From NCBI GenBank assembly GCA_903864515.1, contig CAIPFZ010000018.1, positions 17,290-81,289 on the forward strand: 64,000 bases of DNA. Reading direction: 5' to 3'. Position 1 is the stretch's first letter; every line of letters starts with the position of its first letter. Of the stretch, positions 1 through 59,359 are shown in pieces. The notes below the pieces were generated by a model. It did not search any database. It saw nothing but the letters and a program-made list of their open reading frames with translations, and was not told the origin of the DNA. The position numbers and the translations under genes were made by a program. Source of the stretch: an uncultured bacterium. GTDB taxonomy: Bacteria; Patescibacteriota; Minisyncoccia; Phycocordibacterales; CAIZLB01.

Positions 1-572
1 TACCAGGTTCAACGGCGGGATATTCTGGAGAAACATCTCAAGGTTATGGGGAATTCCAAGTTGGATCAAATTCCATATACATTCCAATGCCAAACGGTCA
101 CTCAACAATGTATGGATATGAATTTAAGACAGAATTCAATGTTGCCAGAAAGATATGGGACGCCAATAGCTACCGAGGAATTGGAAGAAACGCCGCTTTT
201 CCATTAATTCCAGGTGTATCTGTTGGTATATGTTCAAAGATAATCACTCAACTTAGAGGAATGGGTTATACAAATGGAGGAATTCCAGCTGTTGTACACT
301 TCGCTGGAGGACCAGATGTGCTAGTTAGAATTGATGACTCAGGAGATGACAGAAACATTTGCCCTAGAAATATTATTGATTTCTATATACCAAACTACAG
401 ATTTGCTACCGATTCATACAAATGGTTAGATGGTAGACCTCTTACGGGTATAGACGTGGCTCCAAACGCATCTCAACTAACAGGAACATCAATTAATAGT
501 ATTACTGGAATAAACTGGGGATATAAGTCACTATATGAGTATGACGCTGCAAACGGTGGTACTGTTGATTAA
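1..572 (+). CDS. hypothetical protein, 5'-truncated (frame open to window start)
   Basis: ORF 87..572 has no in-frame stop back to position 3, so the protein probably starts upstream of the window. No recognisable motifs. Sits immediately upstream of the T4SS-like cluster. Confidence 0.4.
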   Translation, partial: PGSTAGYSGETSQGYGEFQVGSNSIYIPMPNGHSTMYGYEFKTEFNVARKIWDANSYRGIGRNAAFPLIPGVSVGICSKIITQLRGMGYTNGGIPAVVHFAGGPDVLVRIDDSGDDRNICPRNIIDFYIPNYRFATDSYKWLDGRPLTGIDVAPNASQLTGTSINSITGINWGYKSLYEYDAANGGTVD

Positions 573-729
573 TATCAAATAAATAAAACACTCTCTTCAT
601 TATTAAAGTATTTTAGAATTTAGAATGAAGTAGGTAGGCCCTTGAATTACCACCACAAAAATAATAATTATAGATTATGTGTGTAAATAATTATTGTTTT
701 TATTCAATATGATATATAATTATCGATAA

Positions 730-3480
730 ATGAGCTTGATGAAATTTATAAACAACAAGACAGCTAAAAAAATCTTTGTGGTTGGGGTTTTGGTGTTGGG
801 GTTTTTAACGGTAAATATTTCAGACAACGGAATAATGAAGTCAGCGGGGGCCGTTACAGACGAGGAAGCATTATATTATGCAAACAATGAGCAGTATGGG
901 TACCTTGGAATGACGACAGGGGATCAAGTTAGATTATCCATGGCAATGCACAACACCTCAACTCTAGCCCTGAGTGTTAACGATATGGCTGGAGTATTTG
1001 GAACATACGGTTCATATCTAAAGGCTACAACAAACGGACAGAACAGTTCACACATAACCCCAGATCAAGTTGCTGGCACAATAACAGTCAACACAATACT
1101 AAGAAAGTTAAATGTTGACGTGTCTACAGACATAAAGGATCAAAATCTCATAGACCTTAAAAATTCAATATATCAATCAGTTATGAGCGTGTTGAGTGAC
1201 CAGGAGTGTATAGAAAACATGAAGAATGTACACAACATATCTCAAATATATGGTAGTCAAAATAACTATGAACTTATTACGGGCTGTGTAAAAAGAGTTA
1301 CAGATAACTCAGCAAATGCATTTGCCGAATACTACAAAAAAACAACGAGTGACCCAGTAAAATTAAAAAACAGGCTTCAAGCACTCGATAATCAGCAATC
1401 TGGTAATCAAAAAGCTTTAGCGGCTGCTCCTGGTGGAAATGAGGAAATATATTGTATTAAGTGGTTAGGGGGAGTAAGTATCCCAGGCTGTATTGCAATA
1501 CTTTCATATTTTATATTGTATTTAACCTCTTGGGTTCTTTTTGCGGCAGCTCTATTGTTTGATTTCACAATCAGTTACACACTATCAATGACTGATATTA
1601 TTGATGGTTTTACTTCTATACAATATGGCTGGGAGGTATTTAGAAACCTTATTAACCTGTTCTTTATATTAATATTAGTATTTATATCAATATCAACAAT
1701 ATTACAAGTTGATAGTTATGGATATAAAAAATTATTAGGAAAACTTGTTATAGCTGCAATATTGATAAACTTTAGCATGTTCTTTACTAAAGTAATAATT
1801 GACGCAAGTAATATTACCGCACTAGTCTTTTATAAGCAGATAATGGTTGATGCAAACAAAAAGAATATTGATACACCCAAGGCTGGGGACAACGTTGTAA
1901 GCTCGGCACTAACTTCTGCATCTGAGGCGGCTGGAGAATACAACAATTTATCTATGGGTATTATGGATGCGCTAGGCATGCAAACCATTTGGGGTGTTTC
2001 AAAGACAACGGGGGGTGGTACAACCGGTGGTTCAACAAAAGATGCAAATAATGACCCAGCAATTAGGTCAGCGAGTGCAGTAGCTGCTGCTGGTGGAGCT
2101 GGTCTTGGATTAAATCCATGGACAATGACACTGGTTGGTCTTGGGGGTTCTGTTTTTATACTATTTCTTTCATTCATTTTCTTGGCCGCATCATTTATGT
2201 TCTTAGCCAGAACTGTAATGTTAATAATGCTATTAGTAACCTCTCCAATAGCTTTTGCTGCAAATGTACTACCTCAAACAAAGAAACTGTCTGATAAGTG
2301 GTGGAGTAAATTAAATAGCGCTGTTTTATTTGCCCCTGTATACATGCTATTGATGTTTGTTACACTCAAAATGATTTGGGGTAGGAGTGACAAAGTAACA
2401 AATCTACTTTCAATGTTCTCAAACACTGATTCTGGTGCTATCAATTCAATATTCTTCTTCTTCCTACTATGTTTTCTACTGGTAATGTGTCTAACAGCAG
2501 CAGCCACAATTGGAACAATAGGCTCAAAAACAATGAGCAGTTGGGGGAAGAGTTTGGGAACAAAGGCGAAGAACTTTGCTATCAACAAAGCAACTTCACC
2601 TGTCAGCTACTTAGCAGACAAGGCATCAAAAAGCAGTATACTATCTAGACTACCCGGCGGAGGTATGATTCTTCAGGGTGCGGATAAGCTAGCACAATCA
2701 AAACTTGGTGGTGACTCAAGCTATAGATCAAGAGTGGACGCTGACAAGAAAACATATCAAACAAGAGGTGAATTAATCAAAAAAGCCAGAACGGGAGATT
2801 TAATTAGAAGGATGGGTGAAAGCGATGAGGAGTTTAATAAAAGAAAGAAAGATCAAGAAGGTGAGGGTAAGAAAGGACAAAGAGAATACTTGGGAATTAG
2901 TACAGCAAAAGGAGACAATCGCCTTGTTTCAAGTAGCTTTAATAAAGGTAAGCAAATGGCAATGCAGGAAATCATGAACAAAAGCCTGGCTGCAAAAACA
3001 GGTGCTTTCGTAGACATAGAAAACAAGGCTAAAAAGGATTCTTTTGCAGCCCTTAAACAAATATCTGAAAAACTTGAAGAGGCTGATGAGCACGGAGATC
3101 ACACAGAGGAGGCATTGAAGTTTATTGAAAAAATTGGAAAAGAAGGAGTTGAAAGTATGGATTTGAAGGACTTAACTAAAGTTATAGATGGATTATCTAA
3201 ACCATTCAACGATCTCACAGAACAAATTTTTCAAAACAACAAAGAGGCTCACGACCTGAGGAACAGAAGGAGTGACCCAAGTACCCCATCCACAGAATTG
3301 ATCGATATAGACAACAGACTTAGCGCTATAACCACCGACAATTTAACACATAGAAACAGGAGAGATGAATTGAGAGATATAATTAGCCTAATAGAGAAAC
3401 CTATCAACAGATGGCAAGAAAATGACGCGAGAAGTGGAACCAAGGCAGCTATCGAAGAGAATAAACCTGATAAAAAATAA
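730..3480 (+). CDS. VirB6/TrbL-like polytopic membrane protein of a T4SS-like system
   Basis: N-terminal signal/anchor, a ~240-aa extracytoplasmic domain, at least six hydrophobic helices (e.g. FILYLTSWVLFAAALLF, LGKLVIAAILINFSMFF, LFLSFIFLAASFMFLARTVMLIML), then a ~330-aa K/E-rich tail. This architecture is typical of VirB6/TrbL-family proteins. The VirB3-like and VirB4 genes follow in the same orientation. Confidence 0.55.
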   Translation: MSLMKFINNKTAKKIFVVGVLVLGFLTVNISDNGIMKSAGAVTDEEALYYANNEQYGYLGMTTGDQVRLSMAMHNTSTLALSVNDMAGVFGTYGSYLKATTNGQNSSHITPDQVAGTITVNTILRKLNVDVSTDIKDQNLIDLKNSIYQSVMSVLSDQECIENMKNVHNISQIYGSQNNYELITGCVKRVTDNSANAFAEYYKKTTSDPVKLKNRLQALDNQQSGNQKALAAAPGGNEEIYCIKWLGGVSIPGCIAILSYFILYLTSWVLFAAALLFDFTISYTLSMTDIIDGFTSIQYGWEVFRNLINLFFILILVFISISTILQVDSYGYKKLLGKLVIAAILINFSMFFTKVIIDASNITALVFYKQIMVDANKKNIDTPKAGDNVVSSALTSASEAAGEYNNLSMGIMDALGMQTIWGVSKTTGGGTTGGSTKDANNDPAIRSASAVAAAGGAGLGLNPWTMTLVGLGGSVFILFLSFIFLAASFMFLARTVMLIMLLVTSPIAFAANVLPQTKKLSDKWWSKLNSAVLFAPVYMLLMFVTLKMIWGRSDKVTNLLSMFSNTDSGAINSIFFFFLLCFLLVMCLTAAATIGTIGSKTMSSWGKSLGTKAKNFAINKATSPVSYLADKASKSSILSRLPGGGMILQGADKLAQSKLGGDSSYRSRVDADKKTYQTRGELIKKARTGDLIRRMGESDEEFNKRKKDQEGEGKKGQREYLGISTAKGDNRLVSSSFNKGKQMAMQEIMNKSLAAKTGAFVDIENKAKKDSFAALKQISEKLEEADEHGDHTEEALKFIEKIGKEGVESMDLKDLTKVIDGLSKPFNDLTEQIFQNNKEAHDLRNRRSDPSTPSTELIDIDNRLSAITTDNLTHRNRRDELRDIISLIEKPINRWQENDARSGTKAAIEENKPDKK

Positions 3481-3483
3481 CAT

Positions 3484-4281
3484 ATGATTAATTTTACAAA
3501 AACAGACTTAGAAAACAGACTTAAAACTCTTTCCAAGGAGATGCAAGATAAGTTGTTAATGTTAAGTTACGAGGACTATTTTAGAAACATAATAAATTAC
3601 AAAAACGTAAAAGATGACGAAATTTTTGATGCTGTAGGTTATGCAGCAAGAGTTGTTGCCCTCGGCTTCGCCTCCAAGCAAGAAATGTTTGATCTTATTT
3701 TGGAAGCGATAGGCGATGAAGATGAGGCTAGACATATTTTTGAAGAGATAGATAGAACAATACTTGTTCCAAATAATTTTCAAGGACTACAGCAAGATCA
3801 ACAAGAAACACCAAAAGCAGAAGTCTCGCAAGGCACATCAACTCAAGAAAACACAACAATCACAACAGAAACTGCAGAAGACATTCTTAAGGAAATTGAA
3901 AATCCAACACCGGCACCAGCATCCCTTCCAGTCTTTAAACCAGAACCTGTGATATCAACTCAAGCTCAAGCACCAGAATTAGCACCAACACAAGCGCCAC
4001 AGCAATCAACAATACAAACCCAGCAACCTATTCAAACAGAAATTCCACAGACAAATACTCCAATAAATCAAACGCAACCAACCCCAACCCAGTCAAACCC
4101 AGTATCAATGACAATGCCAACAAAAGAGCAGGTTGCGGCGCAACAAATGAATCAACCTCCCCAAGTACAAACAAACCCAAACAAAGAATCTCAACTTGAT
4201 TCCAAACTCACAGATGCAACAGCACAGCCTTTAAAATCAACATATTATAAAATAGACCCTTATAGAGAGCAATTAAAATAA
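3484..4281 (+). CDS. hypothetical protein with P/Q/T-rich low-complexity C-terminus
   Basis: Starts 4 nt after the VirB6-like stop. C-terminal half is a proline/glutamine/threonine-rich repeat (PTQAPQQSTIQTQQPIQTEIPQTNTP...). Confidence 0.4.
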   Translation: MINFTKTDLENRLKTLSKEMQDKLLMLSYEDYFRNIINYKNVKDDEIFDAVGYAARVVALGFASKQEMFDLILEAIGDEDEARHIFEEIDRTILVPNNFQGLQQDQQETPKAEVSQGTSTQENTTITTETAEDILKEIENPTPAPASLPVFKPEPVISTQAQAPELAPTQAPQQSTIQTQQPIQTEIPQTNTPINQTQPTPTQSNPVSMTMPTKEQVAAQQMNQPPQVQTNPNKESQLDSKLTDATAQPLKSTYYKIDPYREQLK

Positions 4282-4282
4282 A

Positions 4283-4612
4283 ATGACAGCAAATTCAATA
4301 GAAAGAAATAAAGAAAGATTTGATTCACTCCCTCAAGATTTTCAGCGGGCAATCAGGACAAGTGATTATGATCTAGAACTTGCAACAATAGCAAAAAAAT
4401 ACAAGCTTCATATTGATCAATCAGCCAACCTAGAAGAAACATTGGCAAAATTCATTTTTGGGGAGATAGAATCTTCAGATCTGATATCGGAAATGGAATC
4501 GAAAGTAAATATACCAAGAGATACAGCGGTTGAAATGGTGAAGGAAATAGATCAATTGATTATTACGCCCATCAGAAAAAACCTTCAAGATATTCAATCA
4601 AAGACAAGTTAG
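4283..4612 (+). CDS. hypothetical protein (T4SS cluster)
   Basis: Tightly packed (2 nt after previous stop), same strand. No motif recognised. Confidence 0.4.
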   Translation: MTANSIERNKERFDSLPQDFQRAIRTSDYDLELATIAKKYKLHIDQSANLEETLAKFIFGEIESSDLISEMESKVNIPRDTAVEMVKEIDQLIITPIRKNLQDIQSKTS

Positions 4613-4643
4613 ACTAAAACTTATGTAGATAAAATATTAAATT

Positions 4644-4680
4644 TTATCACAAAAGAAGACTTGAAATAATTGTCATGATA
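4644..4680 (+). promoter_or_regulatory. putative extended -10 promoter (TGaTATAAT) upstream of the VirB3-like gene
   Basis: The sequence ttgaaataattgtcatgatataattg contains TGATATAAT about 25 nt upstream of ATG 4697. Coordinates approximate. Confidence 0.3.
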
Positions 4681-4696
4681 TAATTGTTTTGACAAC

Positions 4697-5134
4697 ATGA
4701 GATATCAAACGCCACAATTTATTGAAGAGGATGAAAAACTATTTGGCCCCCTAACATTTAGGCAGTTTGTCTATTTAGTAGGGGGTCTTGGTATTTCATT
4801 TGTATTATACAAAACACTTCCTTTCTTGATTTCTCTATTAGTAATAATCCCAGTAATGATGACTTCAGTTGCTTTGGCATTTTACAAAGTAAATGAAAGG
4901 CCTTTTATTGATACATTAGAAGCTGCTTTCTTTTTTATGTTCTCCAACAGACTTTATACATACAAAAAAATAGACAAACCTATTAAACAGAGCATGGATG
5001 ATCAAAAGACAAGAATAGCACCTCAAATTAATCTGGGAGTCTCTAGTAGCAAACTAAAGGACTTAGCATGGAGTCTAGATATTAATGAAAAGACCAACAG
5101 CAGAGTTGGTGATAATCAAAAATTAAATATATAA
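4697..5134 (+). CDS. VirB3/PrgI-like small two-helix membrane protein
   Basis: 145 aa. N-terminal FRQFVYLVGGLGISFVLYKTLPFLISLLVIIPVMMTSVALAFY forms two TM helices. Lies directly upstream of the VirB4-type ATPase, as PrgI/VirB3 does in conjugative systems. Confidence 0.45.
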   Translation: MRYQTPQFIEEDEKLFGPLTFRQFVYLVGGLGISFVLYKTLPFLISLLVIIPVMMTSVALAFYKVNERPFIDTLEAAFFFMFSNRLYTYKKIDKPIKQSMDDQKTRIAPQINLGVSSSKLKDLAWSLDINEKTNSRVGDNQKLNI

Positions 5135-5141
5135 TTAAAAA

Positions 5142-5804
5142 ATGTCATCAAACGCATCTATAAACTCAAAACCAACTCAAGACTTTGTCCCAATTAAAGA
5201 GGTTAGGGATGGAGTTGTAATACTAAAGGATGGATCGATGAGAGCAGTTCTACTTGCTTCATCTATAAACTTTGCCCTGAAATCACAAGAGGAACAGCAA
5301 TCGGTACTTTATCAATTCCAAAACTTCTTAAATTCAATAAACTTCTCCATTCAGATATTCGTTCAATCAAGAAGACTGGATATTACACCTTATATCAACT
5401 TATTGGATGATAGAATTAAATTTCAATCTAGTGAGCTAATGAAGGTTCAAACAAGGGAATATATGGATTTTATTAGAAATCTAACAGAATCAGTAAATAT
5501 TATGACAAAGAGTTTCTTTGTTGTAATTCCATATTCACCTGCAATAATAAGTCAAAAAGGTGGTGTATTATCAGGTATTTTTGGTGGAAAGAAGGACAAG
5601 AAAGAATCTGACAATGAAGAGTTTTTACAATTTGAAGAATACAAGAGTCAATTACAACAAAGAGTTGACGTAGTAGAACAAGGACTTGCAAGATGTGGAG
5701 TTAGAGTTGCAGAACTTGGAACAGAAGAAATAATTGAGTTCTTCTACAAACTATTTAATCCAGGAACAGTAGAAAAACCAATCAACATGTCAGTAGACAG
5801 ATAG
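5142..5804 (+). CDS. hypothetical protein resembling a VirB4/TraC N-terminal domain (no NTPase motifs)
   Basis: The segment VPIKEVRDGVVILKDGSMRAVLLASSINFALKSQEEQ follows the pattern at the N-terminus of VirB4/TraC-family proteins. No Walker motifs. Sits between the VirB3-like and VirB4 genes. Confidence 0.4.
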   Translation: MSSNASINSKPTQDFVPIKEVRDGVVILKDGSMRAVLLASSINFALKSQEEQQSVLYQFQNFLNSINFSIQIFVQSRRLDITPYINLLDDRIKFQSSELMKVQTREYMDFIRNLTESVNIMTKSFFVVIPYSPAIISQKGGVLSGIFGGKKDKKESDNEEFLQFEEYKSQLQQRVDVVEQGLARCGVRVAELGTEEIIEFFYKLFNPGTVEKPINMSVDR

Positions 5805-5839
5805 AATTTTTATGCATTTTAGCGTACAATTAGAACAAC

Positions 5840-7687
5840 ATGAGTTTACTAGATTTTTTAAAAAAACAACCACAAGAAAGTTCTCCAATTAGTTCCATTC
5901 TACCAAAGGAAATTTATCAATCTGGTGTTTTGGAATTACAGGACATTATCGCACCGTCTGGCCTTAAGATAAGTCCAAAGACAATAAATCTTGGGGAAAA
6001 AATAGTTAGAACCTTCTTTGTTATATCTTATCCAAGATTTCTATCATCAAATTGGTTCTCTCCAATAATTAACCTAGATAAAGTCTTTGATATTTCTATT
6101 TTTGTACACCCAATAGATACATCTACAATATTAAGACAATTTACAAAAAAAGTTGCAGACATTGAAGTTGATATAAGTACAAGAGAAACAAAAGGATTGG
6201 TTAGAGATCCAAAACTTGATACCGCCTATCAAGATCTAGAAGAGCTCCGAGACAAGCTACAACAAGCACAGGAGAGACTTTTTGATGTAGGCCTATACCT
6301 TTCCATATATGGAGAGAATGAGCAGGAATTGGACAAAATTGAGTCTGAAATCAAATCAATACTTGAATCTAATCTTGTATTCATTAAACCCGCTCTATTT
6401 CAACAAGAACAAGGCTTTCAAAGTGTTCTTCCGATAGGTGAAGACAAGCTAGGTGTTCACTCAAAACTAAACTCAGAGCCATTGTCTAGTATTTTTCCTT
6501 TTATCTCTTTTGACCTTACATCCGATAAGGGAATTTTGTACGGAATTAATAGACACAACTCGAGTCTAATTCTTTTTGATAGATTTTCTCTAGAAAACTA
6601 TAACTCTGTTACTTTTGCTAAAGCAGGATCTGGTAAGTCATATCAAACAAAGCTAGAAATCATCAGATCCATGATGTTTGATACAGATGTCATAGTTCTT
6701 GACCCAGAGCGAGAATATGAATACCTTGCAGAAGCAACAGGAGGAAGATATTTCAATATTTCATTAACATCAGAACACCATATTAATCCCTTTGACTTAC
6801 CTGTACCAAGAGAAGGTGAATCTTCAGCGGATGTTTTAAGATCCAACATTATCAACCTTGTTGGTTTGTTTAGAATAATGCTTGGAGGACTTACACCAGA
6901 AGAGGATGCTGTTATGGACAGAGCAATCACTGAGACCTATGCCCTTAAGGATATTACTCCTGAATCTAATTTTGCTGCCGCTGAACCACCACTTATGTCA
7001 GACTTTGAGCTTGTTCTTGGTGGAATGGAAGGTGGAGAATCATTGGCTCAAAGATTAACTAAATATACCAAAGGAACATGGGCGGGTTTTATCAACAGAC
7101 CTTCAAATATTGATATCAACAAAAAATTTGTGGTCTTTTCACTTAGAGACATGGAAGAGGAATTGAAACCTGTTGCGATGTATATTGTTATGCACTACAT
7201 TTGGAATGCAATTAGAAAAGAATTAAAGAAGAGACTCTTGGTTATTGACGAGGCGTGGTATTTGATGAAGTCTGAGGACACAGCATCATTCCTTCTTGGA
7301 TTAGCTAAAAGAGGTAGAAAATATTATTTGGGTCTTGCGACAATTACACAAGACGTTGAAGACTTTCTAAAATCCCCTTATGGATTACCAATTATTTCCA
7401 ACTCTTCTATTCAAATCCTACTTAAACAATCTCCATCGTCAATTGATATTGTTCAAAAAACCTTTAATTTAACTGATGAGGAAAAATATCTTCTCCTTGA
7501 GTCAGATGTAGGAGAGGGAATGTTCTTCGCTGGACTTAAGCACGTGGCAATCAAAGTCATTGCATCGTATACAGAAAATCAGATTATTACATCAAAGCCA
7601 TCTGAGGTTTTGCAAATAAAGAAGGAAAAGGCTGAGTTGGCTGAGCAAAGAGCAACTGAGATGGAAAATCTAAAGAGAAGTATTTAA
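5840..7687 (+). CDS. virB4: VirB4/TrbE/CagE-family T4SS ATPase
   Basis: Walker A FAKAGSGKSY, Walker B/DEAW motif LLVIDEAWYLM, and the typical N-terminal VirB4 domain (IVRTFFVISYPRFLSSNWFSPIINLDKVFDISIFVHP). Confidence 0.8.
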   Translation: MSLLDFLKKQPQESSPISSILPKEIYQSGVLELQDIIAPSGLKISPKTINLGEKIVRTFFVISYPRFLSSNWFSPIINLDKVFDISIFVHPIDTSTILRQFTKKVADIEVDISTRETKGLVRDPKLDTAYQDLEELRDKLQQAQERLFDVGLYLSIYGENEQELDKIESEIKSILESNLVFIKPALFQQEQGFQSVLPIGEDKLGVHSKLNSEPLSSIFPFISFDLTSDKGILYGINRHNSSLILFDRFSLENYNSVTFAKAGSGKSYQTKLEIIRSMMFDTDVIVLDPEREYEYLAEATGGRYFNISLTSEHHINPFDLPVPREGESSADVLRSNIINLVGLFRIMLGGLTPEEDAVMDRAITETYALKDITPESNFAAAEPPLMSDFELVLGGMEGGESLAQRLTKYTKGTWAGFINRPSNIDINKKFVVFSLRDMEEELKPVAMYIVMHYIWNAIRKELKKRLLVIDEAWYLMKSEDTASFLLGLAKRGRKYYLGLATITQDVEDFLKSPYGLPIISNSSIQILLKQSPSSIDIVQKTFNLTDEEKYLLLESDVGEGMFFAGLKHVAIKVIASYTENQIITSKPSEVLQIKKEKAELAEQRATEMENLKRSI

Positions 7688-7720
7688 ATCAGTTGCAGGG
7701 AGGTATATTATATGTTTAAT

Positions 7721-7750
7721 AAAGAAGCTTTTTTAAAAAAAGGCTTTTTT
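7721..7750 (+). terminator. putative intrinsic terminator after virB4
   Basis: A/U-rich hairpin aaagaagcttttttaaaaaaaggctttttt followed by a T run. Confidence 0.3.
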
Positions 7751-7780
7751 ATTATCCTGTAGTCTGTTAATATATAGACA

Positions 7781-8260
7781 ATGAACGAAAGGCAAGCAGA
7801 AAGTCAATATAAACTATCAAACAAGAGAAATCCTGGTAGAAGTTCTGTTTTTAAAAAAAATGAAGAGGATGATTTTGAGGATGAAGATAGTATGTATTTA
7901 AATAGCGAAGATGAACCAGAGAAGAGGGTCTCAGTGAAAGCCTTTTTATTGTCTATAATTTTTGGCTTAGTTTTAGATGTAGTCAGCTTCTTTCTACCCA
8001 TCTTAGGTTGGTCTGTTGGCACCGTGTTAATAATTCTGTTATATTTTAAGCTTGGAGTTAAATTTCATTTTAAAAACTTAATGAAGTTTGGTGGTTGTAG
8101 CTTTATTGAATCAATTCCAGTCATAAACATGTTTCCAGCCTTTACTTTGGCTATAATTTTAAATGTTGGCCCAATGGTTTGGGGTGGAGAACAAGAAGGT
8201 GAAGAACCCTCCCAATCTGCACATAAAGTACAGAGGGCAATATCAATGATTAAAAAATAG
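7781..8260 (+). CDS. small membrane protein, acidic N-terminus plus 2-3 TM helices
   Basis: 159 aa. The first ~50 aa are D/E-rich, followed by hydrophobic helices (LLSIIFGLVLDVVSFFLPILGWSVGTVLIILLYF, MFPAFTLAIILNVGPMVW). Confidence 0.4.
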   Translation: MNERQAESQYKLSNKRNPGRSSVFKKNEEDDFEDEDSMYLNSEDEPEKRVSVKAFLLSIIFGLVLDVVSFFLPILGWSVGTVLIILLYFKLGVKFHFKNLMKFGGCSFIESIPVINMFPAFTLAIILNVGPMVWGGEQEGEEPSQSAHKVQRAISMIKK

Positions 8261-8334
8261 AATTTTTGTATTCTGTGTATAAATTCTAAACAAAAATTAG
8301 TTTACAATGTATAATTAATGATATAATTATTTAG

Positions 8335-9420
8335 ATGATTAAAATTAAAAAACAAAACTTAAGAAAAATCCTGATACTTACAGCTGTATTTTCATTTTTT
8401 GTTTTTAATCAAGATGAATACAATAGCCTATTGAAAAAGGCTGTTGCTCAAACAGGTGATGTATTGAATGTAGTTGACTCACCAATACCTGAACAAATAA
8501 AGGAAATCAAACAACAATTAGAGATTAGTGTCTCTCCAGAAACACCCAGACCAAATGAAGACGTGAATATAAACATTGAGGCTTATGGATTAGATCTAAA
8601 CTCAACTAATATACAATGGCTTATTAATGGCAAAGAACGATTAAGAGGAGATGGCGAAAAGAGATTTTCTTTTAATGTGGGTAGCGGAGGAGAAAGTAGG
8701 GTGGTGGTTAATGTTTTTCCAAAAAACCAACCTCAAATTTCAAGGAGTTTTGTCTTTAATCCATCAAATGTAGATTTATTATGGCAAGCTGAGACATATA
8801 CACCCCCTTTTTACAAAGGAAAAGCACTATTTTCACCTGAATCATCTGTAACACTGGTTGCTATACCAAATTTTACAAACGGCAACTCAAGAGTTAGCGA
8901 TTCAAATGTTGTATATAAATGGAGTATGGACAGAGAAGTGTTGGGTGATGATTCTGGATATGGTAAAAACTATTTAAAGTATAAATCAGACATAATAGAG
9001 TCAGAGAAGGAAATAGCGGTTGAAGCATACCCCTCTGGACAAGAATCAAGGAAAGGTGTCGGTAGTGCAACTCTTTCGGAGAAAAATTCCTTCGGACTAT
9101 TCTACGAAGACAACCCAACAAACGGCATAATGTTCAACTATTCTCTAACAAATCAAATAGACCTAGGTTCAAGGAGTGAATCAAAAATAAGCGTATTTCC
9201 ATATAATTTCACAACAAACAATAAAAGTTCTGGTCTACAATATACATGGTATGTAAATTCAGAGAAAATCAATATTCCAAGTAATACAAACACGGTGACA
9301 ATCAAGAGAAACAACAAGGAAAAGGTTGATTTAGCCAATGTTTTTGTTGATATATCAAACCCAACACATATAATGCAAACAACAAGAAGTGCTGTAGACT
9401 TTTTGTTCAAGAATAATTAA
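8335..9420 (+). CDS. secreted hypothetical protein (signal peptide)
   Basis: N-terminal KKQNLRKILILTAVFSFFVF is signal-peptide-like; the remainder is hydrophilic and N/S/T-rich. No catalytic motif. Confidence 0.45.
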   Translation: MIKIKKQNLRKILILTAVFSFFVFNQDEYNSLLKKAVAQTGDVLNVVDSPIPEQIKEIKQQLEISVSPETPRPNEDVNINIEAYGLDLNSTNIQWLINGKERLRGDGEKRFSFNVGSGGESRVVVNVFPKNQPQISRSFVFNPSNVDLLWQAETYTPPFYKGKALFSPESSVTLVAIPNFTNGNSRVSDSNVVYKWSMDREVLGDDSGYGKNYLKYKSDIIESEKEIAVEAYPSGQESRKGVGSATLSEKNSFGLFYEDNPTNGIMFNYSLTNQIDLGSRSESKISVFPYNFTTNNKSSGLQYTWYVNSEKINIPSNTNTVTIKRNNKEKVDLANVFVDISNPTHIMQTTRSAVDFLFKNN

Positions 9421-9517
9421 AAGGCCAAAGCGGTGGTATTGAATTATTACTGAATATTTTAAAAACTTTCCATAAATAAAATATACATCAAACATTATTT
9501 GTTGTATTATATTAATA

Positions 9518-10279
9518 ATGAATATTTTTAATCACGAAACTATTAATTTGAGTAAGAGAATTTTTTCTGGACTTATTATATTATCCTTGTTTTGTTACTC
9601 TTTCTTAATGTTTAGTTCACTAAACACTGTATTAGCGGCGGCGGATGATATGATAATAGATTTACCTCCGGTTAATGGAGTCCCTGATTCTGTTACTGTT
9701 CCACCCCTTACTGGAAACTTAACACCTGGATTAGACAGATTAGGTGATCAAGTACCAATCAGAACCGGCGCCCCACTACCCGGCGGAACACCGAACAACA
9801 ACTCCCCTGTAATCACCCCCAACCAACAACCCTTAGGAATGCTTGATCAAGATGGCCCCAATGTTTCTGAGGATTGTGGAATTTCTCCAACGAAAGGTAA
9901 ATGGAATTATTGTCTACTTGCACCTTTAAATGGCCTTATTGGTAAGCCGGGTACAAAAAAAAATACCTCTTCCTCCGGATCTACTGCTGTTGAAATATTT
10001 GATGTATCCGGAGGCTTAAGTCCATTCTTCTTCAAGGTATACAGAATTGGTGTAATGGCAGCTATTGCACTATCTATTGTAATGATATCTCTTGGAGGAA
10101 TTCAGCTGGCTACAACAGATTCAATATCCGGAACGGATTCTGGTAGAAAGAAGATCAACGCTGCTTTTGCTGGTCTGTTTATAGCCCTTTTCTCTTACGT
10201 TCTATTATATACAATCAACCCAGCCTTAGTTAATAACGGATCAGGAGATATATTTGATAAGCAAGAAATAAAGCCTTAA
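9518..10279 (+). CDS. secreted protein with C-terminal TM hairpin, possible pilin-like T4SS component
   Basis: Signal peptide, a proline-rich mature region, and a C-terminal pair of hydrophobic helices (IGVMAAIALSIVMISLGGIQLA ... AAFAGLFIALFSYVLLYTI) resembling the VirB2/TrbC pilin fold. Assignment is tentative. Confidence 0.35.
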   Translation: MNIFNHETINLSKRIFSGLIILSLFCYSFLMFSSLNTVLAAADDMIIDLPPVNGVPDSVTVPPLTGNLTPGLDRLGDQVPIRTGAPLPGGTPNNNSPVITPNQQPLGMLDQDGPNVSEDCGISPTKGKWNYCLLAPLNGLIGKPGTKKNTSSSGSTAVEIFDVSGGLSPFFFKVYRIGVMAAIALSIVMISLGGIQLATTDSISGTDSGRKKINAAFAGLFIALFSYVLLYTINPALVNNGSGDIFDKQEIKP

Positions 10280-10281
10280 AC

Positions 10282-11760
10282 ATGTCTAAAACAAAACTCA
10301 CAATATTAATATTAATAATACTAAGTATAGGTCTTGGTGTTCTGTCTGGTATATATTTCTATACAAAGAAAACAACAGAAAATATACCAGTCACTCCAAG
10401 CGACAGAACTATCTTTGGTGGTGTTGGGGGAGTTAGAACAGACCTACCAGCAGATAACACAAATAATACCAGCGATTCAGGAGGTGACATAATTGACAGA
10501 CCAACCTCAACAACAACACCTAAGGCAGATCTATTACGAATGATTTCTGCAGGACCAATATCGGGAGCTGATTTTGTAATAAGAGATATTATAGCTTCAA
10601 GCACACCATCAGTCTTTACAGGAACAACTACAACCTCTACTTCTTCAACTTCAAAATTAACTTCTACCAAGAAAGCTAAAACTGTTGTTATTAAACCTAA
10701 AATATTAGGTCAGGAAGAAAAAATCAGATACATAGAAAGAGGAACAGGAAAAATATATGAGACTGCCTCTTCAACTAGCAAATCAGAAAGAATAACAAAC
10801 TCCACCTATACAAGGATAAACGAGTCTTTCTTTGATAAAAAAGGTGACAACATACTACTCAGGGGATTATTGGGTAATTCAGATGTTATTCAAACCAGAC
10901 TTGGAACAGCATTCCTGGAAACAGCTACTTCAACAACTCAATCTCTTAAAACAAAAGAGCTTCCTTATAATTTATTATCAGTAGCAATGTCTCCAGAGAG
11001 AGATTATTTTGCATATTATATTGAACAAAAAGGTGTTGGGTCTTCCATTAACATAAGCAGACTTGATGGAACAGGAATATTTAATGTTTATAAATCACCA
11101 TTCAGGGAATGGCTGTTATCTTATCCAAATAAGGACACCCTGGTCTTAAATACAAAACCATCAACATACTCAGAAGGCTTTGCATACTCTATAAATATTA
11201 AAAACAAGGCTTTCAAAAGAATAACCGGTGGTCAAAAAGGTCTAACAACCCTAGTTTCACCAGACGGATTAAACGTTTTAGTTGGAGAAAGTATAGATGG
11301 ATCCATGAAACTTAGTATTTTGAACCTAAAAACACAATCTAGTAAGGATATTTATATAAGAACTCTACCTGAGAAGTGTGTATGGTCTCTTTTGGAGAAA
11401 AATACTCTGTTTTGTTCAGCCAGTGAATCAATTGTTTACGCACCATATCCAGACGCTTGGTATCAAGGTCTAGTTTTCTTTAATGATAATATTTGGAAAA
11501 TAAATACAGAAACATCTGAAAATAAGCTTCTTTATGTGGTTAAAGACTCAGTAAAAGATGGAATAGATGTAATTAATCCAAAACTAAGTAAAAATGAGGA
11601 TTACTTTATGTTCACAAATAAGAAAGATTTAAGTCTTTGGGGATTACAGATAGAAAAACCTCAAAAGCAGATGTCAACTTCTACAAAATCAACCAAAACA
11701 ACAATAATTAAGAATAGTACCAGCACAAAATCCACCTCAACAGCAACCTCAACCATCTAA
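10282..11760 (+). CDS. membrane-anchored S/T-rich hypothetical protein
   Basis: N-terminal TM anchor (LTILILIILSIGLGVLSGIYFY), S/T-rich linker, possible beta-rich C-terminal domain, S/T-rich tail. Confidence 0.45.
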   Translation: MSKTKLTILILIILSIGLGVLSGIYFYTKKTTENIPVTPSDRTIFGGVGGVRTDLPADNTNNTSDSGGDIIDRPTSTTTPKADLLRMISAGPISGADFVIRDIIASSTPSVFTGTTTTSTSSTSKLTSTKKAKTVVIKPKILGQEEKIRYIERGTGKIYETASSTSKSERITNSTYTRINESFFDKKGDNILLRGLLGNSDVIQTRLGTAFLETATSTTQSLKTKELPYNLLSVAMSPERDYFAYYIEQKGVGSSINISRLDGTGIFNVYKSPFREWLLSYPNKDTLVLNTKPSTYSEGFAYSINIKNKAFKRITGGQKGLTTLVSPDGLNVLVGESIDGSMKLSILNLKTQSSKDIYIRTLPEKCVWSLLEKNTLFCSASESIVYAPYPDAWYQGLVFFNDNIWKINTETSENKLLYVVKDSVKDGIDVINPKLSKNEDYFMFTNKKDLSLWGLQIEKPQKQMSTSTKSTKTTIIKNSTSTKSTSTATSTI

Positions 11761-11778
11761 TTAATAAGAATAAGGCAT

Positions 11779-11807
11779 AAAAAAACACACAATTGTGTGT
11801 TTTTTTA
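11779..11807. terminator. bidirectional intrinsic terminator (perfect palindrome with A/T flanks)
   Basis: The sequence aaaaaaacacacaattgtgtgttttttt lies between the convergent T4SS gene (+) and yidC (-). Confidence 0.55.
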
Positions 11808-11829
11808 TTGTATTAATAGTTATTATAGA

Positions 11830-12985: not shown

Positions 12986-13120
12986 CTATACAGACAACTT
13001 CTTCCTTCCTTTTGCGCGACGAGCAGCTAAAACACGACGTCCACCGTGAGTGGCAGTTCTAACAAGAAAACCGTGTGTTTTTGCTCTCTTTCTTTTGTTT
13101 GGTTGATATGTTTGCGACAT
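12986..13120 (-). CDS. rpmH: 50S ribosomal protein L34
   Basis: Not on the ORF track (44 aa). The reverse strand translates to [44 protein letters not shown], a classic L34. Divergent from dnaA. Confidence 0.85.
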
Positions 13121-13220: not shown

Positions 13221-13229
13221 TTATCCACA
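13221..13229 (+). promoter_or_regulatory. consensus DnaA box TTATCCACA upstream of dnaA
   Basis: Perfect 9-mer. The extended 13-mer TATCCACAGGTAT recurs at about 14949 between dnaA and dnaN. Confidence 0.6.
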
Positions 13230-14633: not shown

Positions 14634-15006
14634 TCATAAATCGGAAAACAGTCATCATACAAACTTAAGATAGGTGATTAACAAGAAAGGGGAGTGATAT
14701 AGAATATCACCTCTTTTTTTGTTTATACATATAAATAACTGTGCATAAGTATGTGTATAAGCTGTTGGTATTAATGTATTACAATGTTCAAAAGCTGTTG
14801 GTACCTGTGTATACCATGTTAACTATATGTATACTTATCAACATCACCCTAAAAGACATTATTTAAGCCACCGTTCAAAACACTGTCTCTTAGTTTGTCT
14901 TTTATAAAAAAAGAGGTAAATTAATAGTTATATCTAAAGATACACATATCCACAGGTATAGTAGTAATAAGCTTTTTTATTAATAAAGATATATAATTAA
15001 TACATT
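14634..15006. other. candidate oriC (dnaA-dnaN intergenic)
   Basis: Terminator-like hairpin after dnaA (about 14689-14721). Near-consensus DnaA boxes: rc TTATGCACA and rc TTATACACA around 14741-14755, and ATATCCACAGGTAT at about 14948-14961. Direct repeat agctgttggta twice. AT-rich tract next to the dnaN start. Confidence 0.5.
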
Positions 15007-21447: not shown

Positions 21448-23163
21448 TTATACAAGATTAGTCTCTTCCAAAACATCATCCTTTTTAAGGTCTATCACTC
21501 TCTCTAATTCATCAAATGATGTTATTCCTTGTAAAACCTTTACTACACCATCTTGTCTCATATCCAAAAAACCCTGCTTCTTGGCTACAGATTTAATTTC
21601 TCTTTCACTTGGATTTTCTCTGACTATTTTTTCAATTGACGCATCCGTTAGTATTAATTCGTGAATTCCTATTCTGTCAAAGTATCCTGTGTTGTTACAA
21701 GACTCACAACCTACCGGCATACAGATTTCAGTTGGCTTTTGAATAAACTCTTTTCCTTCCTCCATATCTTTGATTGAATCCAAAACATCATTAACCAAAT
21801 CAATTCTCTCCGTTGGTATTGGAATTCTTTTTTTACACTTTTCACACAGAACTCTAACTAGTCTTTGGGCTATAGCCGCATGAATTGCAGAGGTTAGTGT
21901 TTTTGGGTCTGCACCTAAGTCAATTAGTCTAGTAAATGTTCCAGCTGCGTTGTTGGTGTGAAGAGTTGAAAAAACGAGGTGACCAGTTAATGCGGCATTT
22001 ATTGCAGTTATTGCAGTTTCAGCGTCTCTAATTTCTCCAACCATTATAATGTCAGGGTCTTGTCTCATTGCGGATTTAAGGCCTGCTTCAAAAGTATATC
22101 CTTTAGATTCTTCAACTTGAGTTTGTACAATTCCTGGAAGGTGATATTCAACAGGGTCTTCAATTGTAATTATTTTATATTCTGGACTAGAAACTTCTCT
22201 TAAAAAGGCGTAAAGGGTTGTTGTTTTTCCAGATCCTGTTGGTCCGGTTGTTAAAATAAGGCCATTTGGTCTAGCTATTTCCTTCCTTATTGCTTCAAGG
22301 AAGCGTTTTGACATACCAAGCTTATCCATTGTAACCATTATGGACTCTGGGTTAAGAATACGCATAACAACAGACTCTCCATATGATCCTGGAATTGTTG
22401 ATGTTCTTATTTCAATATCTGTGTTCTTTACTTTTACTGTAAATCTACCATCTTGAGCGTTTGATTTAATGTTTAACTTAAGTCCAGATAATAATTTGAT
22501 ACGGGAAAGTGTTAATTCATAAGTCTCTTTATCAAATTCAGAGACGGTTGTTAAGACACCATCAATTCTGTATCGCAGTCTTGCTTTTAATTCACCAACT
22601 TCAATGTGAACGTCAGAAGATTTTGTAGAGAGTGCCCCCGCCATAACAATTGAAAGCATTTTTGATACTCGGTGGGTTTTCTTCATTTCCAAAGCTTCTT
22701 TTATCCATAGAGCAATATCCTCAAGGTTTTTTGTTCTTTGAACAAGGTCCTCAATCTCTTCGTTTGAAATATCCAACGAACCCGCCTCTGTTTCAGAAGC
22801 AAAGGAAATATCCTTATATCTCTCCCAAGCTTTTTCTAGGCTGTGAATTGATGCAATAAAAAGAGTGGGCCTGTATCCATTTCTCTCTAGGGTGTCTAAA
22901 ACATCCTTAGTTTCAGGGCTTTCTGGTGAATGAACTGCAATGGATATCTTTGTTCCAACTATATCAAATATTGCAACCTTGCTTTCTTTGGCTGTTTTCT
23001 CTTCTATAAGTTTAAGTCCATCTGAATTAATGGATACTGTAGTTAGGTCAATGTAAGATATATTGTACTTTTCCGCTAGAATTTGCATTGAAGCCTCTTC
23101 TTCATCAAGAAGAAGTTTTTTCATTCTTGCGTTTTGTTTGTCTTCGTCAAAGTGGATGGTCAT
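21448..23163 (-). CDS. pilB: type IV pilus assembly / type II secretion ATPase (PilB/GspE family)
   Basis: Walker A GPTGSGKTTTLYAF, Asp/His boxes, tetracysteine motif (CEKCKK...CESCNNTGY), N-terminal GSPII_E_N-like domain. Confidence 0.85.
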   Translation of the reverse strand: MTIHFDEDKQNARMKKLLLDEEEASMQILAEKYNISYIDLTTVSINSDGLKLIEEKTAKESKVAIFDIVGTKISIAVHSPESPETKDVLDTLERNGYRPTLFIASIHSLEKAWERYKDISFASETEAGSLDISNEEIEDLVQRTKNLEDIALWIKEALEMKKTHRVSKMLSIVMAGALSTKSSDVHIEVGELKARLRYRIDGVLTTVSEFDKETYELTLSRIKLLSGLKLNIKSNAQDGRFTVKVKNTDIEIRTSTIPGSYGESVVMRILNPESIMVTMDKLGMSKRFLEAIRKEIARPNGLILTTGPTGSGKTTTLYAFLREVSSPEYKIITIEDPVEYHLPGIVQTQVEESKGYTFEAGLKSAMRQDPDIIMVGEIRDAETAITAINAALTGHLVFSTLHTNNAAGTFTRLIDLGADPKTLTSAIHAAIAQRLVRVLCEKCKKRIPIPTERIDLVNDVLDSIKDMEEGKEFIQKPTEICMPVGCESCNNTGYFDRIGIHELILTDASIEKIVRENPSEREIKSVAKKQGFLDMRQDGVVKVLQGITSFDELERVIDLKKDDVLEETNLV

Positions 23164-30329: not shown

Positions 30330-31283
30330 ATGAATATATCTAAAAAACTAGAAACAATACAAAAGACACTGGGTTTAACCCAAACCAAGCTTGCTGGGCA
30401 ACTTGGTGTTTCTTTCCCTACCCTTAACAGTTGGATTATTGGTAAAAGTATTCCTAGATTAAAAAAAGAAAAGATAATCAATGATTTGTTTCTAGAGGTT
30501 ACCGGCCAAAAGCAAATTCCAGAAGATGAATTAAATAAAAAAAGAAAAATTTTGCAGTATAAAACACTCGGGTATAAAAGCGTTTTGCGTGAAATTATAG
30601 ATAATCCCGACATTAGAGATCAGTTCATTCTAAAATTGACATATCACAGCAATGGTATTGAAGGTAGCACCTTAACTGAACCTGATACTGCTAATATACT
30701 GTTTAATAATATTGCTATATCTGAAAAAACATTAATGGAGCATATGGAAGCCAAAAATCATCAAACTGCTTTGTTGTATTTGTTTGATTATCTACTACAA
30801 AAGCAAAAGATAAATGAAGATCTGATACTTAAACTACACGGTATTTTAATGAATGGGATAATACCAAATGCTGGGGTGTATCGTAATCACGCTGTCAGAA
30901 TTGTTGGTGTAAACTTACCAACCTCAAACTATCTAAGTATTAAGAAAAATATTCAAGAATTGATAAGGTTTTCCGATGATTTTCTAAGTAAAAAAGATTT
31001 TAATATAATTTCTTTCTCGGCTATATTTCATAGCAAGTTTGAACAAATTCACCCCTTTTCTGATGGAAATGGAAGAATTGGACGTTTGCTTTTAAATGCC
31101 TTTTTACTTAAAGACAATATGGCGCCGGCTGTCATTAGACAAGAAAAGAAGCAGTTATATTATACATACTTATATAAATCTCAAATTAAAGAGGAATACA
31201 GTCAGTTTGAAGACTATCTTTGTGATGCAATCATGGCGGGCTTTACAATCTTAGAAAGAGAAGATGGGGAGTGGTATCTTTAA
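30330..31283 (+). CDS. Fic-family protein with N-terminal XRE-type HTH domain
   Basis: N-terminal HTH (LGLTQTKLAGQLGVSFPTLNSWIIG). Canonical Fic motif HPFSDGNGRIGR. Confidence 0.8.
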   Translation: MNISKKLETIQKTLGLTQTKLAGQLGVSFPTLNSWIIGKSIPRLKKEKIINDLFLEVTGQKQIPEDELNKKRKILQYKTLGYKSVLREIIDNPDIRDQFILKLTYHSNGIEGSTLTEPDTANILFNNIAISEKTLMEHMEAKNHQTALLYLFDYLLQKQKINEDLILKLHGILMNGIIPNAGVYRNHAVRIVGVNLPTSNYLSIKKNIQELIRFSDDFLSKKDFNIISFSAIFHSKFEQIHPFSDGNGRIGRLLLNAFLLKDNMAPAVIRQEKKQLYYTYLYKSQIKEEYSQFEDYLCDAIMAGFTILEREDGEWYL

Positions 31284-31345: not shown

Positions 31346-31420
31346 GTCCGCTCGGTAGGAATCGAACCTACGACCCTCTGCTTAAAAGGCAGGTGCTCTA
31401 CCGACTGAGCTACGAGCGGA
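31346..31420 (-). tRNA. tRNA-Lys (anticodon TTT)
   Basis: Reverse strand reads TCCGCTCGTAGCTCAGTCGGTAGAGCACCTGCCTTTTAAGCAGAGGGTCGTAGGTTCGATTCCTACCGAGCGGAC. Cloverleaf with anticodon loop CTTTTAA. CCA not encoded. Confidence 0.85.
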
Positions 31421-39452: not shown

Positions 39453-39453
39453 A

Positions 39454-40005: not shown

Positions 40006-40007
40006 TC

Positions 40008-40553: not shown

Positions 40554-40554
40554 T

Positions 40555-58390: not shown

Positions 58391-58404
58391 ATTTCAAATA
58401 AAAG

Positions 58405-59352: not shown

Positions 59353-59359
59353 TGTATTT

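Follow-up and report, generated by a model that had tools for sequence, protein, structure and literature searches.

The first 11,760 nucleotides of the DNA analysed here, a window of 64 kilobases (kb) on contig CAIPFZ010000018.1 of an uncultured patescibacterium, carry a gene cluster which very probably is a core, origin-proximal chromosomal type IV secretion system (T4SS) of the Patescibacteria clade (Paceibacteria/Parcubacteria type), derived from the monoderm MPF-FATA systems and uncoupled from DNA transfer. Throughout, the window means the whole 64 kb and the cluster its positions 1-11760. A first-pass annotation, made from the letters alone, had seen a T4SS-like VirB4/VirB3/VirB6 cluster in this region, and this view stands, on curated profiles for VirB4 and PrgI and on a weak TrbL match together with topology for VirB6. 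The type of system was already published between 2023 and 2025 (PMC10633639, PMC12102498), and the locus is an ordinary example of it. What is added here, namely the folds of two partner proteins, a family of DPYRE-tailed proteins and a comparison of the constraint on VirB4 with that on DnaA, should be taken as leads rather than discoveries.

The cluster consists of eleven close-packed, co-oriented open reading frames (ORFs) on the plus strand, separated by spacers of 1-157 nucleotides, in agreement with the ten or more packed genes counted at first pass. The overlaps of a few nucleotides that had been described as well were not found: neighbouring genes abut with gaps of 1-3 nucleotides (3480/3484, 4281/4283, 10279/10282). 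The features are as follows.

1..572, plus strand: upB, the last 190 or so amino acids of a secreted protein of greater length; reading frame 3 open from nucleotide 3
730..3480, plus strand: extended VirB6-like polytopic membrane protein, 916 amino acids; putative, from a weak TrbL match, topology and position
3484..4281, plus strand: cytoplasmic DPYRE-tailed protein, 265 amino acids; no hydrophobic segment, orthologue alignment
4283..4612, plus strand: short paralogue of the 3484-4281 protein, 109 amino acids; helical domain of about 100 amino acids alone
4697..5134, plus strand: PrgI/VirB3-like two-helix membrane protein, 145 amino acids; PF12666
5142..5804, plus strand: TrsD-like protein, 220 amino acids, stand-alone homologue of the VirB4 N-terminal domain; NCBIfam and Pfam profiles
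5840..7687, plus strand: VirB4 ATPase core, 615 amino acids; NF045971, Walker motifs
7781..8260, plus strand: small polytopic membrane protein, 159 amino acids; hydrophobic segments
8335..9420, plus strand: g09, predicted N-terminally membrane-anchored protein with three immunoglobulin (Ig)/fibronectin type III (FnIII)-like domains, 361 amino acids; AlphaFold2, Foldseek
9518..10279, plus strand: VirB2-like T4SS pilin family protein, 253 amino acids; PF18895 in orthologues, orthologue profile
10282..11760, plus strand: g11, predicted N-terminally membrane-anchored TolB-like beta-propeller protein, 492 amino acids; AlphaFold2, Foldseek
11777..11808, no strand: perfect 14-bp A/T-rich palindromic hairpin, a terminator-like site between the last cluster gene and yidC

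For comparison, a scan of one genome per species returned 544 loci, of which 80 were kept (metagenome-assembled genomes (MAGs) labelled Taylorbacteria, Zambryskibacteria, Campbellbacteria, Paceibacterota and others); the loci were chosen by VirB4 similarity, and all statistics on synteny and identity refer to the 43 that have full 10-kb flanks. The nearest relative, L003, shares about 79% DNA identity with our sequence across the region. Since frame 3 is open from nucleotide 3 and upB is 92% identical to the C-terminus of a 641-amino-acid ORF of L003 (2890-4815), the cluster must be cut by the start of the window. Its continuation further upstream had been missed at first pass. At the other end the hairpin separates convergent 3' ends, the last cluster ORF stopping at 11760 and yidC, on the minus strand, at 11830, and is a probable bidirectional terminator that would mark the 3' boundary. 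A promoter scan of the window gave nothing above shuffled expectation, and therefore no operon start is assigned.

The identification of the system rests first of all on its motor. The product of 5840-7687 matches the NCBIfam model NF045971 (VirB4-like conjugal transfer ATPase, CD1110 family of Clostridioides), its best curated family, with 362 bits against a cutoff of 325, the match covering model positions 178-733 of 752 and residues 23-570 of the protein, and in addition Pfam P-loop_TraG (3.9e-25). The Walker A (AKAGSGKS at residue 260) and Walker B motifs (LLVIDEAW at residue 466) are both intact, the latter holding the DEAW motif noted at first pass. The closest solved structure is the C-terminal domain of Thermoanaerobacter VirB4 (PDB 4AG5, 2e-38). 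Assignment to the FtsK/HerA-type ATPases, named earlier as the alternative for this protein, was checked by profiles and rejected, as the DUF87/HerA central domain reaches 27.7 bits (residues 259-321) against the 362 bits of the VirB4 equivalog. At least 8000 VirB4 homologues were retrieved; each of the best 120 has a length of 589-709 amino acids and an identity of 80% or more, and these come, where the source is named, from Parcubacteria, Paceibacterota, Taylorbacteria and Pacebacteria, the remainder being labelled generically as 'bacterium'. Judged by profile and homologue identity, this VirB4 would belong to the Patescibacteria branch of MPF-FATA.

The VirB4 core is devoid of the usual N-terminal domain. 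From its profile matches, the product of 5142-5804 is a TrsD-like protein, a detached homologue of this very domain: it matches just the N-terminal 130 or so positions of full-length VirB4 models, with hits to NCBIfam VirB4_plasma (positions 99-233, 4.4e-12), to the CD1110 model (positions 2-109), to the N-terminal part of Pfam TraC_F_IV and, under the model's cutoff, to TrsD NF041427 (8.5e-7). The first-pass annotation had missed this separate gene for the VirB4 N-terminal domain. Of the 43 loci, 42 have a TrsD ORF of their own (about 210 amino acids), and every one of the 43 gives a tblastn match. An artefact, with a frameshift or pseudogene behind the division into TrsD and VirB4, is rejected, as the two-ORF arrangement is kept among the 43 relatives. 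The gene before it, 4697-5134, encodes two adjacent hydrophobic helices and matches PF12666 PrgI with 41.1 bits (gathering score 27), which bears out its earlier description as a two-helix VirB3/PrgI-like protein; it occurs in all 43 loci with a median identity of 46%.

The fourth component is more difficult to place. The product of 730-3480 has 7-8 hydrophobic segments and is laid out as a signal/anchor helix, a variable ectodomain of 200 amino acids, a transmembrane bundle (residues 240-592) and a cytoplasmic tail of 324 amino acids, of which 19% are K+R and 16% D+E (35% charged). The first-pass annotation as a polytopic VirB6/TrbL-like protein with a charged tail thus holds for topology and tail, whereas the match to Pfam TrbL (PF04610) lies below the gathering score (E=1.5e-3, 18.8 bits against 25.9). 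Per-member Pfam scans of the orthologues gave similarly weak results, with 6 of 42 matching TrbL at E<0.01 (best 1.6e-4); the charged tail is found in all 42 (231-615 amino acids, about 33% charged) and the ectodomain ranges from 0 to 307 amino acids. A profile built from the orthologues retrieved just coiled-coil noise from the tail when run against the PDB, and a tblastn search of 72,556 plasmids with the transmembrane region gave no match. With regard to L003, the ectodomain (residues about 30-228; 730-1420 versus L003 4955-5583) shows no detectable similarity to its counterpart in this closest relative, in which the gene is present as two ORFs of 100 and 676 amino acids; the cause would be hypervariability of the region or else an error of assembly or a frameshift in the L003 MAG. 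Taken together, VirB4, TrsD, PrgI/VirB3 and the VirB6-like protein are the parts of a translocon in the cytoplasmic membrane.

The setting of these genes is chromosomal. Downstream of the cluster follow yidC, rnpA and rpmH on the minus strand and then dnaA and dnaN. With rpmH (L34), at 12986-13120 (minus strand), the gene order rpmH-rnpA-yidC / dnaA-dnaN that is canonical for replication origins is complete. Immediately before dnaA, at 13221-13229, there is a perfect DnaA box, and four boxes with one mismatch each lie in the dnaA-dnaN spacer (14740-14954); together with the gene arrangement they therefore point to a probable oriC some 3 kb away from where the cluster ends. The window-wide count of DnaA boxes is not significantly above that of shuffled sequences, and GC skew gives no clear origin signal or switch in the window. 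GC content ranges from 31 to 40% across the 64 kb, that of the cluster being like its surroundings. In 43 of 43 loci the genes occur in the order VirB6-like protein, (g04 domain protein), PrgI, TrsD, VirB4, small membrane protein, g09, pilin-family protein(s) and g11, and the same loci all continue with yidC (minus strand), (rnpA, minus strand), dnaA and dnaN. Because order and position beside dnaA are identical throughout, we conclude that the cluster is part of the core chromosome and not an integrative and conjugative element (ICE); its inheritance is strictly vertical and collinear beside dnaA. Whether the block is core or accessory had been left at first pass to a comparison of gene order, which decides for core. 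Pfam scans of the ORFs of at least 120 amino acids moreover detected no type IV coupling protein (T4CP)/VirD4, relaxase, VirB11 or integrase domain in the 64 kb. The earlier statements that these four are missing and that this is no typical plasmid or ICE module are hence borne out, and no relaxase, VirD4 and integrase lie adjacent to the cluster that would make it an ordinary ICE.

Selection on the cluster is uneven. Protein identity to L003 is 99.35% for VirB4, 94.6% for DnaA, 94.3% for YidC, 92.6% for TrsD, 89.6% for DnaN and 84% for PrgI; g09 (82%), g11 (80%) and the VirB6-like protein (66%, its ectodomain being unalignable) follow, and the fastest are the pilin (63%), the small membrane protein (61%) and g03 (47%). 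Synonymous codon changes relative to amino-acid changes number 218/4 for virB4 (5840-7687 versus L003 10001-11848), 169/24 for dnaA, 77/14 for yidC and 122/38 for dnaN, which gives virB4 eight times the ratio of dnaA. Median identity over the 43 loci amounts to 79% for VirB4, 62% for TrsD, 57% for DnaA, 47% for DnaN and 43% for YidC; as the loci were picked by VirB4 similarity, its value is somewhat inflated, but the gap is still large. VirB4 thus appears to evolve more slowly than DnaA, and from both comparisons the motor is under housekeeping-grade or stronger constraint while the surface-exposed parts diverge fast.

Outside the translocon proper, the protein most readily linked to a T4SS is encoded at 9518-10279. 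By itself it yields no Pfam match at E 0.01 or better. However, 35 of its 43 positional orthologues match PF18895 T4SS_pilin (best 4.7e-10), and a profile built from the orthologues, the window sequence excluded, matches its residues 128-239 with 84.5 bits (3e-28), which places it in the VirB2-like pilin family. The first-pass annotation had left a series of proteins without a recognisable family, and this has to be revised for the pilin. The protein consists of a signal peptide, a Pro-rich extension of about 85 amino acids and, at the C-terminus, a pilin domain of two helices (residues 128-239), and a hidden Markov model of this domain finds no second match among all six-frame ORFs of the 64 kb. 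Among the relatives, a few proteins at the pilin position match SLT, CHAP, NlpC/P60 or 3D hydrolase domains. In the region between the g09 and g11 orthologues (inspected in L001, L008, L009, L011 and L013) some relatives have two tandem pilin-domain genes, a 474-amino-acid protein of L013 contains two pilin domains, and a 451-amino-acid SLT-annotated gene of L001 also carries a pilin domain. These arrangements suggest that the VirB2-like hairpin can act as a membrane anchor.

Two of the other partners, each present in all 43 loci, can be described from their predicted folds. The AlphaFold2 model of g09 (alignment of 87 sequences; mean predicted local distance difference test (pLDDT) score 88.8) has an N-terminal helix followed by three beta-sandwich domains, for which Foldseek returned Hoc (3shs, 3.6e-10) and the FnIII tandems of fibronectin and titin as best matches. 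g09 had been considered as the missing VirB8/TcpC-like component on account of its TcpC-like size, and was rejected as such, as the model contains three Ig/FnIII domains and not an NTF2 fold. The model of g11 (96 sequences, mean pLDDT 85.9) begins with a helix, from which a disordered S/T-rich linker leads to a beta-propeller matched by TolB (4pwz, 1.1e-8) and other propellers, and a profile search against the PDB gave TolB at 0.05. We are confident of the two modelled folds, from which g09 would be a membrane-anchored triple Ig-like protein and g11 a membrane-anchored TolB-like propeller. The small protein encoded at 7781-8260 has an acidic cytoplasmic N-terminus and 2-3 hydrophobic segments and evolves fast; its positional orthologues (110-230 amino acids) share weakly conserved P-x-G and E-x-IP motifs, and searches for a Pfam or PDB family gave nothing convincing. 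Upstream of the VirB6-like gene, the positional orthologues of upB are about 550 amino acids long, with a signal peptide, a conserved Cys-rich N-terminal domain and a variable C-terminus, features which make upB a candidate surface adhesin. Searches of Pfam and the PDB with this family likewise gave nothing convincing as a whole; single members contain an F5/8-type-C lectin domain (4 of 39), an Ig-like domain (1) or DUF4141 (2). In the relatives two conserved genes, preceded by ksgA, lie upstream of VirB6; one encodes an N-terminally anchored protein of about 300 amino acids, the other is this upB orthologue of about 550 amino acids.

The proteins encoded at 3484-4281 and 4283-4612 stand apart from the rest. 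The unassigned proteins had been described at first pass as secreted or membrane-bound, which does not hold for these two, as they have neither signal peptide nor transmembrane helix. They are paralogues sharing a helical domain of about 100 amino acids and containing no hydrophobic segment. In the longer one this N-terminal domain is followed by a P/Q/T-rich disordered linker, an 'ILxxIExP' motif and, at the extreme C-terminus, DPYRE. A phmmer search with the helical domain gathered a family of 1319 clusters at 50% identity, many of them with 2-3 tandem copies (range 1-3), for which no Pfam or PDB match was found. DPY[RHK] occurs within the last 10 residues of 27 of 30 sampled members, and the gene lies inside the operon in nearly all relatives, its place in the 43 loci being between VirB6 and VirB3.

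How does this locus compare with known systems? Wang et al. 2023 (PMC10633639) showed by transposon sequencing that Southlakia epibionticum cannot grow as an epibiont without its T4SS locus SEML1_0006-0019, the pilins of which are essential too. They described the locus as unusual and Gram-positive-like in composition and recognised neither a coupling protein nor a relaxase; essentiality of T4SS and pilins for this mode of growth is also reported in a 2025 review (PMC12857230), in which the Patescibacteria systems are listed as a new T4SS category. Quinonero-Coronel et al. 2025, Microb Genom (PMC12102498), found in 3,035 Patescibacteria genomes a monophyletic VirB4 clade nested in MPF-FATA, with TrsD as the commonest partner, with PrgI/VirB3, VirB6 and VirB2-like pilins near virB4, with almost no relaxases and with T4CP homologues mostly encoded elsewhere. 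In Paceibacteria and Microgenomatia they located the system near dnaA, dnaN, rnpA, ksgA and rpmH, and in some Patescibacteria they obtained matches to MPF-FATA accessory profiles (PrgF, TrsJ, Gbs1347, Gbs1350, Orf17). Our locus shares with this clade the MPF-FATA-affine VirB4, the separate TrsD, PrgI/VirB3, the VirB2-like pilin beside virB4, the lack of relaxase and T4CP nearby and the position next to dnaA/dnaN/rnpA; the putative VirB6 homologue would be a further common part. It differs in having a single pilin gene, unlike the arrays of 2-11 pilin genes common in Saccharimonadia and Microgenomatia, and in lacking a VirB1-like hydrolase in the cluster. The triple Ig-like protein, the propeller, the small polytopic protein, the DPYRE family and the two upstream secreted proteins are not, so far as we could see, among the components named in PMC12102498 and PMC10633639. 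Similar clusters in small-genome episymbionts had been mentioned at first pass, correctly, but as uncharacterised, which understates a literature that includes the transposon sequencing and the phylum-wide survey.

The nearest VirB4 proteins on plasmids come from Firmicutes and Actinobacteria (28-35% identity) and are encoded there in the same PrgI-VirB4-hydrolase order. On a Clostridium perfringens plasmid (L083), for instance, MobC, a relaxase, DUF3801, VirD4 and two small proteins are followed, in this order, by PrgI, a full-length VirB4 of 783 amino acids and an SLT hydrolase. With the Gram-positive conjugative T4SS of the MPF-FATA type (CD1110/CTn2, pCW3 Tcp, pCF10 Prg) our locus has in common an NF045971-type VirB4 with PrgI immediately upstream, a polytopic VirB6-like protein further upstream and a single-membrane architecture without VirB7, VirB9 and VirB10. 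Those systems, however, carry a relaxase, MobC, a VirD4-type T4CP and a large SLT/CHAP hydrolase and reside on mobile elements, whereas here all of this is absent, VirB4 is split into TrsD and core, a pilin is present and the genes form a fixed chromosomal core block. Absence of a relaxase is shared with Bordetella Ptl, Brucella VirB, Helicobacter ComB and archaeal Ced, the first three of which also have no dedicated coupling protein. Ptl, Brucella VirB and ComB, though, are diderm MPF-T-type machines with VirB7-10, unlike the present locus, and homology to any of the four was not detected beyond VirB4. Helicobacter ComB and the Ced system of the archaeal Sulfolobales import DNA.

From these data a working model can be drawn. 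Hexamers of VirB4/TrsD, TrsD supplying the N-terminal domain that VirB4 lacks, would dock on VirB3/VirB6 at the single membrane, and VirB4 would supply the energy for extracting pilin and polymerising it to a tube or a short pilus, for the passage of a substrate, or for both. The Ig-like, propeller and upstream secreted proteins may span or remodel the wall, help the structure to cross it and contact the host. The structure would thereby link the epibiont to its host cell and serve contact-dependent transfer of macromolecules rather than conjugation.

In which direction would macromolecules pass? Our preference, held tentatively, is for an uptake of material from the host, nucleic acids for example, with export of effectors coming next. 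As an import conduit, or 'feeding tube', the system would take up host RNA, DNA or other macromolecules, in a direction analogous to that of ComB and Ced. Patescibacteria generally are without nucleotide synthesis, which counts in favour of this, as does the lack, in the 64 kb, of a relaxase and T4CP for exporting DNA substrates, and purifying selection on VirB4 that exceeds that on DnaA fits a housekeeping, growth-limiting role. In S. epibionticum competence is dispensable and the T4SS essential (PMC11665869, PMC12857230). More specifically, deletion of comEC abolishes competence and not viability (PMC12857230), a finding that weakens, as far as competence is concerned, the role in DNA uptake suggested at first pass. 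Furthermore, the cultivated Microgenomatia strain OT8 acquires host RNA and forms tubular parasite-to-host connections, for which T4SS pili have been suggested (2026 preprint, bioRxiv 10.64898/2026.06.21.733656). Speaking against import, the NCBIfam CedB profile is matched far under threshold (39.6 bits against a cutoff of 700), and the cluster shows no evident gene for a nuclease, for a protein that binds nucleic acids or for one that forms channels in the host membrane. A more elaborate version of the idea, which we regard as rather doubtful, is that the accessory set forms a lineage-specific, wall-spanning 'feeding' apparatus that imports host macromolecules such as RNA, with the DPYRE protein as a receptor or adaptor in place of VirD4. 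Such a set may comprise the DPY(R/H/K)E family, the small polytopic protein, the triple Ig-like protein, the propeller, the extended pilins and the Cys-rich upstream protein with its swappable lectin-like ends.

The reverse direction is a possibility that we consider somewhat less probable than import. Here the system would be an effector translocator that exports proteins into or onto the host, with the DPYRE protein as a candidate substrate. C-terminal signals are typical of T4SS substrates, and the operon encodes, in nearly all relatives, a member of a cytoplasmic, largely disordered family with a conserved motif at the extreme C-terminus. Given the absent coupling protein and relaxase, Wang et al. 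(PMC10633639) favoured protein export or 'an alternative capacity', and protein-secreting T4SS without a T4CP do exist, namely Ptl and Brucella VirB (PMC12102498). Then again, a role as structural adaptor is just as possible for the DPYRE protein, its N-terminal domain is conserved and repeated in the manner of a scaffold, and the cluster encodes no toxin, enzyme or effector-like domain.

It is improbable, in our view, that the cluster is an organelle for pilus formation and adhesion alone, in which VirB4 and pilin build a fibre, the Ig-like, propeller and lectin-bearing proteins serve as adhesins and nothing is translocated. The presence of a pilin gene and of extracellular Ig-like and propeller proteins would agree with it, as would the variable C-termini and occasional F5/8-type-C lectin domains of the upB family, and the fast evolution of the VirB6 ectodomain, the pilin and the small membrane protein is compatible with adaptation to host surfaces. 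However, separate type IV pili are encoded in the window, and such pili mediate adhesion and motility in Saccharibacteria (PMC12857230). Moreover, VirB4/TrsD are extremely conserved and VirB6 has a large, conserved tail in the cytoplasm, which suggests more than the assembly of a fibre. Finally, an ordinary conjugative element (an ICE or integrated plasmid) or its decaying remnant, brought to mind by a VirB4 family that otherwise occurs on conjugative plasmids and ICEs of Firmicutes, is effectively refuted here by the lack of any relaxase, T4CP or integrase in the 64 kb, by the absence of repeats, by the identical position and order beside dnaA in 43 of 43 loci, by a virB4 synonymous-to-amino-acid ratio eight times that of dnaA, by a GC content like the surroundings and by a VirB4/TrsD split which is conserved and thus not a pseudogene lesion.

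Several points weigh against our interpretation of the locus as a Patescibacteria-clade T4SS uncoupled from DNA transfer. A T4CP gene could lie outside the 64 kb examined, as is reported for most Patescibacteria (PMC12102498). The VirB6 assignment would follow from weak TrbL matches, that is from profiles below threshold, taken together with topology and gene position. With extensions of 127 amino acids at the N-terminus in the window protein and of 150-340 amino acids at the C-terminus in relatives, the pilin-family protein is unlike classical VirB2 and may therefore be a membrane anchor and not a polymerising pilin. Neither a VirB1-like hydrolase (no SLT, CHAP or NlpC domain in window 1-11760) nor a VirB8-like component of NTF2 fold (PrgL, TcpC, TraM) was found, no cluster ORF fitting the latter, two proteins having been modelled. 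The data on essentiality and imaging come from other classes (Saccharimonadia and Microgenomatia), and the choice of loci by VirB4 similarity favours VirB4 in the comparison of conservation.

In the rest of the window, ORFs of at least 120 amino acids other than those described encode housekeeping functions (PBP1, RuvABC, PolA, Fpg, alanine racemase, L19, NusG, L11, ArgRS) or type IV pilus components or have no Pfam family. The earlier report of PilB and PilMNO genes elsewhere in the window is correct for PilB (21448-23163, minus strand), PilM and PilN (38328-40005), and probably for PilO; the plus-strand pilus genes occupy 38328-40956 and include a small S/T-rich ORF. Divergent from pilB, an ORF of 854 amino acids rich in Pro, Glu and Ser (23269-25833, plus strand) belongs to no family and has a local GC content (0.40) and an AT skew that both exceed those of its surroundings. 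A Fic/DOC protein with an N-terminal helix-turn-helix domain (30330-31283, plus strand) adjoins a tRNA gene (31347-31419) in housekeeping surroundings. At 37375-38253 (plus strand) a RuvX (YqgF) domain, of the Holliday-junction-resolvase-like kind, and a tRNA_bind domain at the C-terminus are joined in a single ORF. At 57563-60349 (plus strand) two SIMPL/DUF541 paralogues of 275 and 356 amino acids flank folD, the second, with a GTG start, overlapping the 3' end of folD by about 70 nucleotides.

A large part of bacterial diversity belongs to the Patescibacteria, and the way in which they draw resources from their host cells is a major question. Few of their machines have been shown to be indispensable for epibiotic growth, and one of these is the T4SS, whose function was called 'completely unknown' in a 2024 perspective (PMC11665869). 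The locus described here leaves the existing picture as it is and adds to it a clean example from the least-studied large class, the Paceibacteria, together with figures which indicate that constraint is tighter on VirB4 than on DnaA and a list of conserved unnamed partners, two of them with confident folds, which could guide structural and genetic work as soon as Paceibacteria can be grown together with a host.

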